From: Candidatus Thorarchaeota archaeon
GTDB lineage: Archaea > Asgardarchaeota > Thorarchaeia > Thorarchaeales > Thorarchaeaceae
Direction: 5' to 3'
Assembly (NCBI GenBank): GCA_019057475.1
Contig: DXJO01000041.1
Span: 114,217 to 178,216, forward strand
DNA length: 64,000 nucleotides
In this document: one piece after another, positions 40,531 through 49,176 of the stretch
Layout of the letters: every line of letters starts with the position of its first letter
Position numbering within the stretch: position 1 is the stretch's first letter
Notes under the pieces: generated by a model
Told to the model about the DNA's origin: nothing
Databases searched by the model: none
Seen by the model: the letters and a program-made list of their open reading frames with translations, nothing else
Position numbers and translations under genes: made by a program

Positions 40531-42090
40531 CTATTTCGCCGTCCGTTTCTGGTGCATCCTCCAAGACAATGTGAGAGTCTTGGGGTGTGCTGCTCGGTAT
40601 TCGTCCAAGTCGTGGAGTGCTGTCGAATGTGGCGCACTCTTGACAATATCCGGGTTGCTGTATGCCTCGTTGGATATCTGCTTGAATGCGCCTATCAAGA
40701 GGTCAAGATCTTCTTTTGATTCGGATTCCGTGGGTTCAATCATGAGTGCCTCTGGAACAATCAGTGGGAAGTACATAGTGGGAGAATGAAGACCAAGATC
40801 AAGAAGTCGCTTTGCCACATGCATTGCGGTCACTCCGGTTTCTTCTGCAAGATTCTCGGCCGATATGACACACTCGTGCATGCGTGGCGTATTGGGAGAA
40901 TAAGGTAGACTGAATCCTCGAATCTGACTGATGTGATGCGCGATATAGTTCGCATTGAGCACTGCGATTTCAGAAGTTCTACGAAGTCCCTCCTTACCTA
41001 AGGCACAGATGTATGTGTAAGCTCTCACAAGAACGCCGAAGTTGCCGTAGAAGCCATGGACTTTTCCGATAGATCGAGGTAGATTGTAGTTCAGGTCGAA
41101 TCTGCCTTCTTTTACCTTAACAATACACGGTACGGGGAGCAGCTCGATCAACTTCTCCTTCACACCCACAGCTCCGGATCCTGGACCACCCCCACCATGA
41201 GGGGTCGAGAAGGTTTTGTGCAAATTCATGTGCATGACGTCGAAGCCCATATCGCCCGGTCGACTTATCCCCATTATTGCATTAAGGTTGGCTCCATCGT
41301 AGTATAGAAGCCCTCCAGAGTCATGGACTATGCCTGCAATTTCGCCGATATCTTTCTCGAATACTCCAATGGTGTTCGGGTTGGTGAGCATAAGACCTGC
41401 GGTCTGCGGACCTGAAGCTGCCTTGAGCGCATCAAGGTCAACAAGACCTTCGTTACTGGATGGGAGAACGACTATCTTGAAGCCAGCCATCGCAGCCGAG
41501 GCAGGGTTAGTTCCGTGAGCCGCATCCGGAATAAGCATCTCCTTGCGTTGATCGCCCTCATCCATGACATGCTTGTGATAGGCCCGGATAATCATAACAC
41601 CTGCGAACTCACCTGCGGCACCCGCGGGTGGTTGAAGAGTTACTGCGTCCATTCCTGAGAGCTCGGCCAACCACTGCTCAAGCTCCCACATCAACTCTAA
41701 GGCACCTTGGCATGTGGAAACATCTTGGTATGGATGAAGCCATGCCAGACCAGGGTTCAGCGCAGCCTGTTCATTGATGAGGGGGTTATACTTCATTGTG
41801 CAGCTGCCAAGCGGATAGATGCCTGAAGACACAGAGAAGTTCATTTGGGACAATCGGGTGAAGTGACGAACTACTTGAAGCTCTGACATCTCTGGTAGGT
41901 TAGGGCTCTGTTTCCTACGCATCCCTGCGGGGATCATTGCATCCAGTGATCCTGCTAATCTCTTCACTTCATCCTCTACAGCAGGAAGTCGGTGGGCTAT
42001 CTTGCCTGACACGGACATCTCGAAGAGGAGAGGCTCGTTCCAATTGGCCTGGCGGTATTTGGAATCTTGAGAGTCGCGTTGGCGGTTCAT
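40531..42090 (-). CDS. gcvPB: Glycine decarboxylase subunit 2
   Basis: PLGSCTMKYNP, HGTNPASA, NLHKTFSTPHGGGGPG. Confidence 0.96.
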   Translation of the reverse strand: MNRQRDSQDSKYRQANWNEPLLFEMSVSGKIAHRLPAVEDEVKRLAGSLDAMIPAGMRRKQSPNLPEMSELQVVRHFTRLSQMNFSVSSGIYPLGSCTMKYNPLINEQAALNPGLAWLHPYQDVSTCQGALELMWELEQWLAELSGMDAVTLQPPAGAAGEFAGVMIIRAYHKHVMDEGDQRKEMLIPDAAHGTNPASAAMAGFKIVVLPSSNEGLVDLDALKAASGPQTAGLMLTNPNTIGVFEKDIGEIAGIVHDSGGLLYYDGANLNAIMGISRPGDMGFDVMHMNLHKTFSTPHGGGGPGSGAVGVKEKLIELLPVPCIVKVKEGRFDLNYNLPRSIGKVHGFYGNFGVLVRAYTYICALGKEGLRRTSEIAVLNANYIAHHISQIRGFSLPYSPNTPRMHECVISAENLAEETGVTAMHVAKRLLDLGLHSPTMYFPLIVPEALMIEPTESESKEDLDLLIGAFKQISNEAYSNPDIVKSAPHSTALHDLDEYRAAHPKTLTLSWRMHQKRTAK

Positions 42091-43493
42091 CTTGTGCCAC
42101 CCCCTTTAGTCACGACATCACGAACCACTTCCACAAGCTGATCAATAGCAGTCTTGCCATGGAGTTCAGTTACGCATAACAGCATTGATTCCCCAAATTC
42201 AGGGTATTCCTCAGTTAGAATCTTGCCACCATGTAAATCACGCTTCAGTAGAGATTCATGAACCAGCTGGGCAGAAGCGTCACCCTCAAACCTAACAACA
42301 AACTCCTTCCAGAATGAGGCACCAAAAGCGGGCGCCGTTACGCCAGAAATCTTGTTGAGTTGTTTCGCAGCGTAATGCGATCTGTGGGCAATTATTTCAC
42401 CCAAATGCCGGAATCCCTCAGGCCCAAGTGTGGATGTGTAGACAGCGGCTGTCACTGCGACAAGTGCTTGATTTGAGCAGATGTTACTGGTGGCCTTCTC
42501 CCTTCGGATATGCTGTTCGCGAGGAACGAGAGTCAGAACAAATCCGCGCTTGTAAGGTTCGTTGGATGTTCTTGTCATCCCCACGAGACGGCCTGGAAGT
42601 TGACGGATTATCTTCATGCGATCCCTGCAGCCGAACACTCCAAGGTATGGCCCTCCATAGGATACTGCAGAACCCAAGTACTGTCCTTCACCAACGATTA
42701 TGTCCGCTCCGTAGTTTCCCGGGGGCCGTAGAATACCAAGAGAGAGCACGTCCACCCCTACAACCAAGAGAGAGCCAGCATCGTGCACGATACGGTTGAT
42801 CTCATCAACTTGGGGTTCAATGAAACCTAGGTAGCTGGGATTCTCAACATAGACTCCTGCAACTTGGCTGTCCAGTTTCGACTTCAAGTCTGCAAGGTCA
42901 AGAAGCATACTCTTCTGGTCATGTCCGACCCGCTCAATCGTGATGCCTGCAGGCTCTGCAAACGTATTGATTACCTGCCAATGGACTGGATTGATCGTGT
43001 CAGGCACAAGGAATTTACTTCGCTTCTTGTTCACCCTTGCGGCCATCAAGACTGCTTCCGCCAGTCCGGTGGCCATGTCGTACATGCTACTGTTTACGAC
43101 ATCAATCCCAAGTAGCTCGGCCATCATACTCTGATACTCGAACAGTGTTTGCAGCATTCCCTGACTGATTTCAGGTTGATAGCTTGTATAGGAAGTGAGG
43201 AATTCAGACCGTGTGGCAAGTGCAGGTACTACTGAAGGGATGTAATGTATTCCTGCGCCTGCACCCAAGAAGACACGTCCTGTATCAGCTGGTTTGTTCT
43301 TTGAGGCCAGTTCTTGCACTCGTTGTGCTACTTCGAGCTCAGTTCTCGAGGTGGGAATATTGAGATCCCGTTTCAGCCGATAGTCCTCGGGAATATTACT
43401 AAAAAGATCCTCCAGACTCCTCTTGCCAAAGGAGCTCAGCATCTCGCTTTCGATTTCTTTTGTGATTGGGAGATAGGGATGCTTGAATTCCAT
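42087..43493 (-). CDS. gcvPA: Glycine decarboxylase subunit 1
   Basis: YTSYQPEISQG, NSSMYD, REQHIRREKATSNICSN. Confidence 0.96.
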   Translation of the reverse strand: MEFKHPYLPITKEIESEMLSSFGKRSLEDLFSNIPEDYRLKRDLNIPTSRTELEVAQRVQELASKNKPADTGRVFLGAGAGIHYIPSVVPALATRSEFLTSYTSYQPEISQGMLQTLFEYQSMMAELLGIDVVNSSMYDMATGLAEAVLMAARVNKKRSKFLVPDTINPVHWQVINTFAEPAGITIERVGHDQKSMLLDLADLKSKLDSQVAGVYVENPSYLGFIEPQVDEINRIVHDAGSLLVVGVDVLSLGILRPPGNYGADIIVGEGQYLGSAVSYGGPYLGVFGCRDRMKIIRQLPGRLVGMTRTSNEPYKRGFVLTLVPREQHIRREKATSNICSNQALVAVTAAVYTSTLGPEGFRHLGEIIAHRSHYAAKQLNKISGVTAPAFGASFWKEFVVRFEGDASAQLVHESLLKRDLHGGKILTEEYPEFGESMLLCVTELHGKTAIDQLVEVVRDVVTKGGGTR

Positions 43494-43646
43494 TCGTAGC
43501 CCCACCGAACACGGTTGTCAGTGACTGATGGCGCAACCTAAGCGATAAAGAGCCTTTCTGTATACTCCACAAAGCTGGTCTGGAACCTAAGAATCATTTT
43601 TATGCTGACATCAATTGACGATGCTCAAATCAATGGAGAAACCGAA

Positions 43647-44073: not shown

Positions 44074-44928
44074 TTACTTCGATTTGATGTCCAAATCATC
44101 TGGAGGATCAGTGATCTGTACTTTGAAGAGACGTTTGACGTGTGAGAGAACAAGCCTCTCGCCGTTGACAAGCACGTCTATTGTGACATGATCACGTAGG
44201 CCCGAAGTGCGAATCTTCTTCTCTAGGACAGCCTGCACTTGAAAGACTCCTGCAGGATTATCCATTGCCACGGTAATGCGAAGGGGCTTCTTCTTACCTT
44301 TCTCAAGAATGACATTGTTGATGGCAAGTGCACTCACTGAATGGATGTCGACCTTGCCTTTGTGATAGGGCACTATGGTGCGCCCTTTCGTTAGGTCGCT
44401 GCCATCACCTAGCTTTGTAATTCCGGCCTCAAGCGTCAGACACTGAGTATCATCATCGTGGGAGTAGATGCCGTGCATTATGAAGGACATTATATCAGTC
44501 GCCAATGACAAATCCGAGTATACGGATTCTAGCTTTGGCTCAAGGATTGGAACCGCTAGTTGGAGTGAGGCTTGGTAGTGTTCTTCTCGGTGTACCGTCA
44601 TTCCAATGTCATGCAAATATGTCGATGCTAGCACGATTAGGCGAGCATCATCAGTGTCACCTATGCCCTCAGCCACAACATTGGGCCTGAAGGTGTCGTC
44701 GAGAATGTTGAATATCTTAATGGCGTTCCAAGTTGCCACCTCTGCATGAACAGGCCCGTGGTCTGTGTAGCCCAGTCGAGAAACAGCCATTCTGTTCGCC
44801 GTTCGGAGGTAGGATTGGACCTTTGGCGAATTCTTGAGGTACTGATACATCTCTAGAGCCTTTGAGTTGGGCTCGAGTAAATCACTGACGGTGACCTCAT
44901 CTCTGTTGAAAACTTGATGCTCGTTCAT
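44074..44928 (-). CDS. HD-superfamily phosphohydrolase (COG3294-like)
   Basis: LGYTDHGPVH, YLHDIG, DLTKGR, DIHSVSA. Confidence 0.88.
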   Translation of the reverse strand: MNEHQVFNRDEVTVSDLLEPNSKALEMYQYLKNSPKVQSYLRTANRMAVSRLGYTDHGPVHAEVATWNAIKIFNILDDTFRPNVVAEGIGDTDDARLIVLASTYLHDIGMTVHREEHYQASLQLAVPILEPKLESVYSDLSLATDIMSFIMHGIYSHDDDTQCLTLEAGITKLGDGSDLTKGRTIVPYHKGKVDIHSVSALAINNVILEKGKKKPLRITVAMDNPAGVFQVQAVLEKKIRTSGLRDHVTIDVLVNGERLVLSHVKRLFKVQITDPPDDLDIKSK

Positions 44929-44999: not shown

Positions 45000-47951
45000 C
45001 TAGATGTCTCCAGCCTCTTCCTGAATCGAAAGCAGAATGCGGTCTGTAGCGCTGGTGCTCTTTTTGATGACCTTTAGATAGTCCTGTCGCGCCTTCTCGA
45101 AGGCTGCACGACTAATCCTCTGCTTCTTCTTCCTGAGAAGGAGCTGACGGAGACCGGCCTTTGCGCCCTCGATTCGTTCTTCGTGAAGCTCGAGCTGAGC
45201 TACGATGTCTCTGTATCTCGGGCCTTCGCTGACGAGCTTATCCTTTAACGAGGGGAGCTGAGAGTCAATCTTTTCCATCTGCGACTTGATATCCTTCTGA
45301 CGAATCATGAACTCCCTCTTCTTGACCTTTCCTCTTCTTCGAGATGCTTCAATCTTTTCAAGATCCATGTTCAAAGTGGTCTTCTTGGAATAGAGCGTAG
45401 CAAACTCCCTCAGAAGCTCTGGAGGCGCACCCGTAGATTTGGCTTCAATTGCAGTTGGTTCTTCTTCGCCCGAACCGACTATCTCCTCTGGTAAGTCTAC
45501 TTTTCTGTACATTACATAAATGAGGGCAATGAAACCTGCCATCAGTGCAAAGAGGATAGGTCGAGCAGCAGCTCCTATCGAAACTTGGTATACCAACACG
45601 ATGTTGGGTGGGTTCTCCTGTGTTGTGTTATAGACTGTGTAACTAATCGATGTGTCGAATACACCGTAAATGAGTTGATAATCGCCTGAGGTTTCTACGA
45701 GGTTGGTTGAGATTGGAAACACAATATCGATTGTATGCTTGCTGACGAGTATATCACCGAACGCGGCTATCGGAACCTTCAGCTGGCTACCTGATGGGAC
45801 AGCATCGGAATAACTTGAAGCCTGTATAACGTAGTCAATCCAAAATGTATACGTGTGTCCGGGCCAGAACCCTTCGTAGCCAAAGCGATCACTTCTGAGA
45901 TCAATCCGAAGCTCAATTGTATTATTGAACTCCAGCTCTCCACGGGGCATCGACTCCGCAAGAGTTCCGACTTCGTCATAGATCCGGAGATCGGCTGCGT
46001 AGGCAGGTATCGTGAATGCGAAGTAGTTCTCCTTTGCAGGACCAATGTTTTCTATGCTGATAGTTTCGCTATAAGAGAGCCATCCCCATGCATCGACTAC
46101 AATCTGAGTGGTCCGTTCAGCATCAATCAACGGGGTGTACGACCGTAGTGAGAAGTCAAACTCCTCAATGCTCATCGGAGCCACATTGATGTCTTCGGTG
46201 TCTGGAATATCGCCTTGAATAGAGTCACCACTCCTGAAACTGACTTTCATCGACGCAGTCTTCAGGACATAGGGTACAGTGGGATACTTTAGATACGTGA
46301 CGTTGTAGATGTTATCTTCCACAAGGTTGTGCAACGAATGCATCATCATTGTCGTCGTAAATGTTAGGGAGTCCTGAAATCCCACTGGTTCCATGAAATA
46401 GACTCTGAAATGCATCATTCCGTTGAGATCATCCAGTTGCATTATCTCAAGCTCATTCTCAGCACTGTCTTCCGCCAACACTGAGAGGAAATAGCTCGGC
46501 CATGGTTGCGGAAGGAAGAATTCCAATGCCCCAATCGGGGCCGTTCCGTTGTTGCGGACTAGGTATTGATCCTCAATCTTCGTGTTATGATACAGCTGTG
46601 TCACGAAGCTCCTATCGACATCAAGGTGCATTCCAATAAGTGGAGTAAAAGGCCAATCAATTGTGACGTTCACTATTGCCGTACTGGTGACATTAGAAAC
46701 GTCAGTTGCATTGAACCAGACTTGGTGACTTCCAACCTCGAATTCAGAGAGGTCAACCTTGACTTCCCATAAGTCGGACTGGAAGTTGTGAAATATCTGT
46801 GTCCAGTTCTCATTGTCAATCCGGTAGTGAGCAGTCCGCACGTAAGTGTTGTCTGTCACATTAATTTTGAACGCCGCCACCAAACCAAGAATTTCATTCA
46901 GAGTTGGGCTTTCCACAACAATGGATGGCGCTGTATTGCCCACGAATTCAACCATAAGGGGATTTGCCCAATCAGTGTGCTGTACAGGAAGTTCATCGAA
47001 GTTCTCAGAACCTCCGAACATCAGGGTGAAAGGAAACTGTACATCCGTTGCATTGAACAGAGGAATGTCATTGGGATCGGTACTGTTCATTTTGATGAAG
47101 TACTCTAGTTGTGTTGTGGTGCCATCATCACTGCCATTCGCTGCAACAATCTGGCTTTGATTAGCATCCGGAAGATGCTGGAATGTGCCTATGGCATGGT
47201 CATCCCTGTAGACGATCTTACTTGCGTCAGCAGGGTTATTTCTATTGGATCCGATTCGTGTCAGAGTTATGACATATTCAAGGTCCTTTCCATACATCTC
47301 ATGGCTAGTTGTAGTGTAGCCTTCTTCGGCAGGAATGATGAAATGACGTTCTTCACCAATTCTCATGCCGATTATTTCATCTATGTAGCCCTGGAGTAGC
47401 CGTTCGTCTTCTATCGCGGTTGTAGAATCATCGTTAGGAACATCGCTCTCCTGTACCAGGGTTCCATTCCGGTCAAACAGCTTGTAGTGAACAGTGACAA
47501 TATCAATGCCAGTCACTCTCGAATAGCTCTCGTGCGGTTCATCTGGAGCGCATCCAAATATCAAGTCACTGCCGTTGAGACCGCTGCTTGTGAAATTTGA
47601 GGTGTAGTTCTGCCAGCCAAGCGCAATCCAACCGGAAGTGGTAGCTGAGAGCCCGACATAGAGGAGTGTTGAGTTGTGCTCAAGGTAAATGGTAACTCCA
47701 GTAGCTGAGTCTGTGTAGCTGTACGAGTACTCTGTTGGGTCGATTATCCCGTCAGCGGAGCCATAGTGGACATCAACATAGGGGATTGAAGCGTTTAGCA
47801 TCGACTCCGCGTAGGAGTAGTCCTGTTGGGTATTGTGAGCCAAGGTCGTGGGATTCCAAGAATTTAACTCAGGAATAGTCAACGCGACGCCACTGATGAC
47901 AAATATCGCCAGTAACGCAATTGTTGCTATTCTTCTACGTAGCAGGCTCAA
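45000..47951 (-). CDS. Ribophorin-I (OST1)-like type I membrane protein with DOMON-like, FKBP-like and Ig-like N-terminal domains
   Basis: Signal anchor; ribophorin-like duplicated beta-sandwich (ERTTQIVVDAWGWLSYSETISIEN.G, IYDEVGTL, TFWIDY); single TM; basic coiled-coil tail; many N-x-S/T sequons. Confidence 0.75.
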   Translation of the reverse strand: MSLLRRRIATIALLAIFVISGVALTIPELNSWNPTTLAHNTQQDYSYAESMLNASIPYVDVHYGSADGIIDPTEYSYSYTDSATGVTIYLEHNSTLLYVGLSATTSGWIALGWQNYTSNFTSSGLNGSDLIFGCAPDEPHESYSRVTGIDIVTVHYKLFDRNGTLVQESDVPNDDSTTAIEDERLLQGYIDEIIGMRIGEERHFIIPAEEGYTTTSHEMYGKDLEYVITLTRIGSNRNNPADASKIVYRDDHAIGTFQHLPDANQSQIVAANGSDDGTTTQLEYFIKMNSTDPNDIPLFNATDVQFPFTLMFGGSENFDELPVQHTDWANPLMVEFVGNTAPSIVVESPTLNEILGLVAAFKINVTDNTYVRTAHYRIDNENWTQIFHNFQSDLWEVKVDLSEFEVGSHQVWFNATDVSNVTSTAIVNVTIDWPFTPLIGMHLDVDRSFVTQLYHNTKIEDQYLVRNNGTAPIGALEFFLPQPWPSYFLSVLAEDSAENELEIMQLDDLNGMMHFRVYFMEPVGFQDSLTFTTTMMMHSLHNLVEDNIYNVTYLKYPTVPYVLKTASMKVSFRSGDSIQGDIPDTEDINVAPMSIEEFDFSLRSYTPLIDAERTTQIVVDAWGWLSYSETISIENIGPAKENYFAFTIPAYAADLRIYDEVGTLAESMPRGELEFNNTIELRIDLRSDRFGYEGFWPGHTYTFWIDYVIQASSYSDAVPSGSQLKVPIAAFGDILVSKHTIDIVFPISTNLVETSGDYQLIYGVFDTSISYTVYNTTQENPPNIVLVYQVSIGAAARPILFALMAGFIALIYVMYRKVDLPEEIVGSGEEEPTAIEAKSTGAPPELLREFATLYSKKTTLNMDLEKIEASRRRGKVKKREFMIRQKDIKSQMEKIDSQLPSLKDKLVSEGPRYRDIVAQLELHEERIEGAKAGLRQLLLRKKKQRISRAAFEKARQDYLKVIKKSTSATDRILLSIQEEAGDI

Positions 47952-48102: not shown

Positions 48103-49176
48103 ATGGTAAATGAGCCGGTAAACAAGGAGATAGTCCAGTTGTATACAATCGTTATCGCCGTCATAATTGCATTCCTCATTGTTCTCCTAGCAATGCCGAC
48201 CACAATCCGAACCCTCAAAGCGAAGGGCAAAGTGGGAATTGATGTCCATAAGTCCGGGAAACCGGAGGTGGCAAAGGGGGGTGGCTACATAGTCCTCTTT
48301 GCGATTGTGACAAGTCTGCTAGTTGTCATCGGTTACACCACATTCCTCAGGACCGAAGCAGTAGATCCCGCGATCTTGGCTGCGTTGGTATCAATACTGA
48401 TGGCTGGCATGATTGGACTTCTCGATGATAATATGGATTTCAGAAACAGGACAAAGATAGCACTCCCACTCATCGCTTCAATTCCAATGGTAGTGATGGC
48501 TGTGGGGACGACCATCATCTCAGTTCCGTTCGTAGGAGCGATAGAATTCGGAGCTTTCTATCCATTGATTATTGTGCCATTGATGATGACATTCATCATT
48601 GACTCCACGAACATGTATGGGGGCATGAATGGATTGGAGGCAGGGTTGGCGACTGTGAACTCGTCAGCTGTGGTTTCGTACGTGCTTCTTCTTCCATTAT
48701 TCACAGGGAAAGCAATCATGCAGAGCCAGCTAGATGCCGGCACAGTTGCAGCCGCTCTACTGGGTGCGGCGTTGGCGTTTCTTGTTTACAATAAATACCC
48801 CGCAAAAATTCTGCCAGGTGATGTTGGAAGACTGCCAATTGGTGCAGCAATTGCCGCGGCGTTGATTCTGGGGAACATGGATAGGCTTGCAATTATCATC
48901 TTTGCACCCTTTGCAGTGAATTTCCTGCTTTACATCCTGTACAGGATTCATGTGAAAAGGATGGGGATGGATTACGTCAAGTTTGCCAGTCCCAGAGAAG
49001 ATGGGACTTTGGAGGTAGTCGGCCCATTTACCATGTACTGGGTGTTACCTCACTTTTTCAAGAACATGACCGAGAAGAAGAATGTGATTATTCTTGTCAT
49101 CTTCCAAGCACTCCTGGCATATGGAGCAGTATTCCTTCTTCTCATAGCTTACCCGTGGGGAGTTGGATTGTTCTAG
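48103..49176 (+). CDS. Dolichol-P GlcNAc-1-P transferase (AglH/Alg7, MraY/GT4 family)
   Basis: GIDVHK..KPEVA..GG, GLLDD, NMYGGMNGLEAG, YNKYPAKILPGDVG. Confidence 0.88.
   Translation: MVNEPVNKEIVQLYTIVIAVIIAFLIVLLAMPTTIRTLKAKGKVGIDVHKSGKPEVAKGGGYIVLFAIVTSLLVVIGYTTFLRTEAVDPAILAALVSILMAGMIGLLDDNMDFRNRTKIALPLIASIPMVVMAVGTTIISVPFVGAIEFGAFYPLIIVPLMMTFIIDSTNMYGGMNGLEAGLATVNSSAVVSYVLLLPLFTGKAIMQSQLDAGTVAAALLGAALAFLVYNKYPAKILPGDVGRLPIGAAIAAALILGNMDRLAIIIFAPFAVNFLLYILYRIHVKRMGMDYVKFASPREDGTLEVVGPFTMYWVLPHFFKNMTEKKNVIILVIFQALLAYGAVFLLLIAYPWGVGLF

Follow-up and report, generated by a model that had tools for sequence, protein, structure and literature searches.

Ribophorin I is a 'eukaryotic signature' protein of Asgard archaea, and both its occurrence there and its ribosome-binding tail are already known: the cytoplasmic domain of OST1 from 'Ca. 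Prometheoarchaeum syntrophicum' MK-D1 (WP_147663064.1; PDB 8WHN) pulls down ribosomes, as does the tail of human ribophorin I, RPN1 (PMC11417166). Accessory proteins are known for the eukaryotic oligosaccharyltransferase (OST) and translocon. FKBP11 binds ribosome-associated secretory translocons beside OST-A; in a human translocon structure (PDB 9ygy) it serves CCDC134 as an adaptor, with its nominal catalytic site buried (PMC12804085). Malectin acts through ribophorin I in quality control in the endoplasmic reticulum (ER) of animals and plants (PMC9144812). Here we describe P0001, a protein encoded in a 64,000-nucleotide window of the Candidatus Thorarchaeota contig DXJO01000041.1, to which unprefixed nucleotide positions refer. 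P0001 is the single OST1/ribophorin I orthologue of its genome and has the full OST1 chassis, to which an outer module of ~400 residues is joined: a DOMON-superfamily β-sandwich with an FKBP domain between its two halves, followed by a Big_7-type immunoglobulin (Ig)-like domain.

The open reading frame (ORF) of P0001 runs uninterrupted over 45000-47951 (-) and encodes 983 amino acids from a TTG start. More than 100 database proteins span 95-100% of P0001 at 50-94% identity; where their source is named, nearly all come from Thorarchaeota metagenome-assembled genomes, and they are usually labelled 'FKBP-type peptidyl-prolyl cis-trans isomerase' or 'hypothetical protein'. A chain of this length could be an artefact of a fused gene call, of misassembly or of read-through of two genes, but a stop-free frame is present in 73 of the 76 genomes of the family, with a length of ~981-1012 residues in most of the complete loci, and has 1034 residues in the sister family. 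The database coverage speaks against an artefact as well, as do AlphaFold2 models that are confident across the domain junctions. Since the same uninterrupted frame recurs in 73 of 76 genomes, the architecture is the product of neither chance nor misassembly; with database coverage and consistent frames across the two families, we rejected a gene-fusion artefact, the probability of which we regard as practically nil.

To characterise the two halves of the protein, we aligned 36 full-length orthologues (A1) and used the subalignments covering residues 38-440 (A2) and 430-983 (A3) for profile searches and for two separate AlphaFold2 models, one per half. The model of residues 430-983, with a predicted local distance difference test score (pLDDT) of 85.2, comprises two β-sandwich domains, a hydrophobic helix, a disordered linker and four long helices. 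Its eight best Foldseek matches in the PDB were 8b6l_O (E = 3.3e-29), 6s7o_E, 8pn9_E, 6s7t_E, 8agb_E, 6ezn_A, 7oci_A and 6c26_1, which we take to be ribophorin I/Ost1 chains of solved OST complexes; the chain lengths fit this assignment and so, for RPN1, does the residue numbering. The ninth-ranked match followed at 3.9e-8, ~10-20 orders of magnitude behind the RPN1/Ost1 chains. The two-domain lumenal β-sandwich body of P0001 folds like RPN1/Ost1, and beyond the membrane the protein carries a cytosolic four-helix domain of the ribosome-binding type known from metazoan RPN1 and Asgard OST1.

At the sequence level, the identity to human RPN1 (8b6l_O, 6s7o_E, 6s7t_E) and yeast Ost1 (6ezn_A, 8agb_E, 7oci_A, 6c26_1) is only 11-17%. 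P0001 alone gave no match to Pfam Ribophorin_I (PF04597) at E<=1, and a sequence search of the PDB with a bare archaeal OST1 (P0131) did not reach RPN1; PF04597 was matched by 10 of the 36 orthologues, with a best E-value of 4e-8. The A3 profile gathered 428 clusters, mostly of 550-620-residue proteins, including archaeal proteins of ~575 residues at E = 8.5e-68 and weaker. Four of six sampled matches of 560-670 residues scored 51-62 bits on PF04597 (cut-off 25), and the profile also matched the tail of MK-D1 OST1 (E = 1.1e-8). The predicted topology is type I, with a signal peptide, one transmembrane helix after the lumenal body and a cytosolic C-terminus; 19 N-x-S/T sequons lie in the ectodomain, before this helix, and none in the tail after it. 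An earlier sequence-only reading of this gene had proposed a ribophorin-like region, a transmembrane helix and a cytosolic coiled coil. The structural matches, together with the A3 profile and the PF04597 matches of the orthologues, bear out the first of these, and the model helix with its hydrophobic sequence and the four-helix bundle bear out a transmembrane helix and a cytosolic tail.

In Pfam and NCBIfam scans of P0001 itself, FKBP_C (PF00254) was the sole accepted match (residues 149-230, E = 1.6e-8, 35.2 bits against a cut-off of 21.1), and it was matched by 35 of the 36 orthologues. BamJ, trigger factor and GldI appeared as sub-threshold matches to FKBP-containing families and were disregarded. 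The model of residues 38-440 had a pLDDT of 88.9 and a predicted template modelling score of 0.82. Foldseek with this whole 403-residue model returned only generic multi-Ig matches, at root-mean-square deviations (rmsd) of >15 Å, and an exhaustive VIA-align structural search with the model gave three non-overlapping sets of matches, which resolve three domains. One of these has the FKBP fold, a half β-barrel around a short helix. Around it lies a sandwich with ~six strands on either side of the interruption, and an ESM Atlas cluster whose members all carry Pfam DOMON superposes on model residues 22-303 with an rmsd of 1.8 Å over 163 residues. The third is an Ig domain matched in both sequence and fold by the bacterial Big_7 family (PF17957). 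A DOMON/CBM9-like sandwich split by an FKBP-like segment at residues ~145-233 (47519-47253) and followed by an Ig-like domain had been read from the letters alone, and each of the three elements was recovered here, the FKBP by both its Pfam match and its fold.

We examined the distribution of this architecture by a six-frame profile search of 301 Asgard genomes, using a module profile and an OST1 profile. The full-length module was found in 73 of the 76 genomes of P0001's family (complete genes: E ~1e-160 to 1e-209, in frames of ~985-1000 residues) and, in the same order, in the one genome of the sister family, and not in the other sampled Asgard families, where the module profile gave single-domain matches only (E 1e-6 to 1e-18). 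The OST1 profile matched 199 of the 301 genomes, and outside the two module-bearing families the matching frames measure 570-710 residues, which agrees with the protein lengths in the clusters gathered by the A3 profile. A single OST1 match was obtained in 71 of 74 family genomes, the other three, with two matches each, being split or fragmentary assemblies; the sole OST1 is the fused one. Within the family, identity to P0001 is 75% for the cytosolic tail, 67% for the N-terminal half of the DOMON sandwich, 58% for the FKBP and 43-48% for the OST1 lumenal domains. The module, carried by the sole OST1 of these genomes, thus exceeds the lumenal core of OST1 in conservation and is not a decaying passenger; from this pattern, it looks functional.

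Among proteins of 162-518 residues, a search with the module (residues 50-345) returned nothing but pieces of this Thorarchaeota gene from short contigs. A piece of 311 residues, P0273, is 86% identical to the module and bears the NCBI label 'Deltaproteobacteria bacterium'; its contig measures 2.6 kb, and most likely it is misbinned Thorarchaeota. A rare paralogue of 567-598 residues also occurs, at L014:2130-3890 (+) (genome G299) and L015:2034-3821 (+) (G179), and is represented by about four database clusters only (P0271, P0272, P0285, P0286). The DOMON sandwich with nested FKBP and the Ig domain are followed in it by another Ig/PKD-like domain, a linker rich in Thr and a transmembrane anchor at the C-terminus, with no OST1 part; the cassette can thus exist as a simple surface-anchored protein. 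In other Asgard families, proteins of ~575 residues contain two tandem matches to only the first half of the sandwich (profile positions ~14-100; G283:C16:26855-27631 and G102:C5:222086-222850), and these could be relatives of the DOMON-like domain before the FKBP insertion.

We then considered what the FKBP and DOMON-like domains of the module might do. FKBP12 positions were mapped onto P0001 through an FKBP13 alignment, and residues were counted over the 36 orthologues. Y156 (FKBP12 Y26), L186 (I56), Y189 (W59) and Y212 (Y82) are present in 36 of 36, Y226 (F99) in 35 and H217 (H87) in 28. These residues suggest that the FKBP keeps its binding pocket, while catalysis is uncertain. In the sandwich, W108, W113, W328, four His and many Asp/Glu are conserved, W328 being invariant and H259 and H325 nearly so. 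Its top structural neighbours are haem proteins (ethylbenzene dehydrogenase gamma, Nxr gamma and the cellobiose dehydrogenase cytochrome), and in one rival reading the domain would bind haem and give the protein an extracellular redox role. The domain has no conserved Met, M288 and M311 alternating with Leu, and by its residue pattern it appears closer to relatives that bind sugar and Ca than to those with Met-ligated haem; we consider haem binding very unlikely.

Taking the results together, the explanation that we favour, and hold to be rather probable, is that P0001 is an OST1 orthologue whose clade-specific outer module serves as a folding station at the glycosylation machinery. By analogy with the systems introduced above, P0001 would most likely be a translocon-tethered extracytoplasmic foldase and ligand binder. 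With its tail, the protein would attach to ribosomes that are translating at the Sec translocon and AglB of the cell membrane, and the outer module would be placed where unfolded, freshly glycosylated chains emerge. There, the FKBP pocket would bind or isomerise prolyl segments of the emerging chains, and the DOMON-like sandwich would act as a rigid pedestal, possibly also binding a sugar or another ligand and so holding the client. The glycosylation machinery would in effect have a folding station fused to it that needs no energy input, a fusion that would have arisen independently within Thorarchaeota. For this sequence of ribosome docking, a seat at AglB and the translocon, and action of the FKBP and DOMON domains on clients, taken as worded, we would put the chance a little short of even. 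More tentative again, and clearly on the doubtful side, is the strongest version, in which one polypeptide docks the ribosome, sits in the OST/translocon and meets the emerging glycoprotein with an active FKBP and a lectin-like DOMON sandwich. If true, this arrangement would correspond, in a prokaryote and in covalent form, to the FKBP11-translocon and malectin-RPN1 pairs and would be the first archaeal physical coupling of glycosylation with folding catalysis.

Several observations weigh against this interpretation. Asp37 of FKBP12 contributes to catalysis, and its equivalent, Q167, is Gln in 27 and Glu in 9 of the 36 orthologues, so that the isomerase activity of the P0001 FKBP may be weak or absent. 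Pfam DOMON was matched by 3 of 36 orthologues, with a best E-value of 1.2e-3, and not by P0001 itself, and the profile of residues 38-440 found FKBPs only, and no DOMON relative, among PDB sequences; membership in the DOMON superfamily thus rests on the fold. As a ligand binder, the domain is a candidate only. The occurrence of the same module on the OST1-less paralogue means that it does not depend strictly on the OST context. Archaeal AglB is generally active alone, and an assembly of OST1 with AglB is therefore assumed from homology. Finally, FKBP11 being an adaptor with a buried site, the analogy with it offers no argument for catalysis in P0001.

Some of these points are shared by the main rival reading, in which the outer module is non-catalytic: a degenerate FKBP would serve as a protein-binding adaptor and the sandwich as a spacer, and the module, instead of folding clients, would recruit another factor or contact the cell envelope. 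The Gln or Glu at the Asp37 position favours it, as does the adaptor role of FKBP11, the closest functional analogue, and as does the presence of the cassette on a surface-anchored paralogue with Ig and PKD-like domains. However, the pocket residues are invariant or nearly so, as a working peptide-binding pocket predicts, and the roles of adaptor and chaperone are not mutually exclusive. We judge this alternative unlikely on balance, though serious, and retain the folding station as the preferred interpretation.

The genomic surroundings of P0001 bear on its link to N-glycosylation. The gene is divergent from a Glycos_transf_4 gene, with 151 bp between them, and the best solved relative of this neighbour is human DPAGT1/ALG7 (E = 2.5e-14), ahead of MraY. 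By tblastn, an ALG7/DPAGT1-like gene stands head to head with OST1 in each of the 11 related loci whose flanks were long enough, the sister family included. The sequence-only reading had coupled glycan or ligand binding and prolyl isomerisation or chaperoning to N-glycosylation in one chain, as an ER-like quality-control module; the conserved neighbour strengthens the glycosylation link, while the functional part of that reading is kept here in the conditional. The genome has one AglB/STT3 gene (908 residues), on another contig; its presence counts for the link as well, as does the confinement of all 19 sequons to the ectodomain. The distance between OST1 and AglB is one of three points in favour of an alternative in which the OST1-like chassis is mainly a ribosome/translocon receptor that is independent of AglB, with the module serving general secretion rather than N-glycosylation; the others are that ribosome binding is the only activity shown for an Asgard OST1 tail, and that no other part of P0001 is as well conserved as its tail. 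We give this alternative little credence and continue to prefer a station at the glycosylation machinery. The positions of the features are collected in Table 1.

Table 1. Features of the P0001 gene and its divergent neighbour in the window
Feature	Position	Strand	Remarks
N-terminal signal peptide or anchor (residues 1-27)	47871..47951	-	basic residues, then a hydrophobic stretch; TTG start; orthologues start at the same place with Met
DOMON-superfamily β-sandwich, N-terminal half (residues ~54-140)	47532..47792	-	structural alignments
FKBP domain nested in the sandwich (residues ~141-237)	47241..47531	-	
DOMON-superfamily β-sandwich, C-terminal half (residues ~238-340)	46932..47240	-	same structural alignments as the N-terminal half
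Ig-like domain, Big_7 type (residues ~341-434)	46650..46931	-	
Ribophorin I/OST1 extracytoplasmic body, two β-sandwich domains (residues ~441-790)	45582..46631	-	
Single transmembrane helix (predicted; residues ~792-815)	45507..45578	-	model helix 363-386 and hydrophobic sequence
Cytosolic basic four-helix bundle, OST1/RPN1 ribosome-binding domain type (residues ~841-981)	45009..45431	-	
GT4-family polyprenyl-phosphate N-acetylhexosamine-1-phosphate transferase (AglH/ALG7/DPAGT1-like), divergent neighbour	48103..49176	+	Pfam Glycos_transf_4, 97 bits

Other genes near OST1 and AglB were noted in passing. OST1 lies ~1.5 kb from two glycine-cleavage P-subunit genes (40531-43505 (-)), and AglB/STT3 directly follows gcvT and gcvH (L001:77-4134 (+), on contig C54 of the same genome, G000). 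Each of the two genes is thus beside one half of the glycine cleavage set, which may be due to chance or may be a relic of a former cluster. On the same contig C54, ~3.7 kb upstream of AglB, a 209-residue ORF (L018:1246-1875 (+)) scores 25.3 bits, just below the cut-off of 27, on Pfam OST3_OST6 over the membrane part of that model (positions 183-288), and is by this match a possible OST3/6-like subunit; at the 5′ end the ORF runs into a topoisomerase gene of the opposite strand, and its true start is probably later. Just downstream of OST1, a gene for 284 residues (44074-44928 (-)) has no Pfam or NCBIfam match. Its position is kept in the sister-family locus, at 49% identity, and there the product has a weak HD-domain match (E = 1.9e-4, 22.1 bits, cut-off 22).

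The comparison with described proteins sets the module-bearing OST1 apart from every other archaeal or eukaryotic version found here. MK-D1 OST1 ends its tail at residue 607 (chain range 466-607) and, like all sampled OST1 ORFs from outside Thorarchaeota, has no room for the DOMON/FKBP/Ig module; the eukaryotic RPN1 and Ost1 proteins, unlike P0001, lack FKBP and DOMON modules at the N-terminus. FKBP11 spans the membrane once, as a protein in its own right, and is recruited dynamically, whereas the FKBP of P0001 is a covalent part of OST1 and nested in a β-sandwich; the resemblance is functional, and orthology is not implied. In the malectin-ribophorin I pair (PMC9144812), a carbohydrate-binding-module-like β-sandwich acts through ribophorin I, and in this it is like P0001; malectin, however, is a separate protein of another fold family, and sugar binding by the Thorarchaeota DOMON-like domain is only putative. 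P0001 would resemble FKBP11 and malectin at the OST in function, probably by convergence. SlyD and the archaeal FKBP17 and FKBP26 (3cgm, 1ix5, 3prb) are cytosolic proteins in which the FKBP flap houses a chaperone (IF) domain. The nesting in P0001 is the reverse: the FKBP is itself the insert and has a short flap and no IF domain. A literature search, with subscription-only papers lying outside it, found no paper on ribophorin/OST1 combined with FKBP in archaea or on DOMON-FKBP nesting.

The ~400-residue module is self-contained and soluble, and offers a handle on questions of peptidyl-prolyl isomerase activity, chaperone activity and sugar or haem binding. The order-wide fusion of OST1 with FKBP and DOMON domains can be regarded as a natural 'Rosetta stone', which argues that OST1 works at the site where chains exit the membrane unfolded and that help with folding at this exit is under selection. 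For FKBP11 and malectin, recently described as accessories of the OST/translocon in eukaryotes, it provides a parallel of independent origin. With the module confined to one Asgard order, convergence is much likelier than ancestry of ER quality control, and the module is more likely a lineage-specific convergent elaboration than the ancestor of that system. Its restriction to Thorarchaeota means that the finding bears on convergent solutions and not on how ER quality control directly descended.

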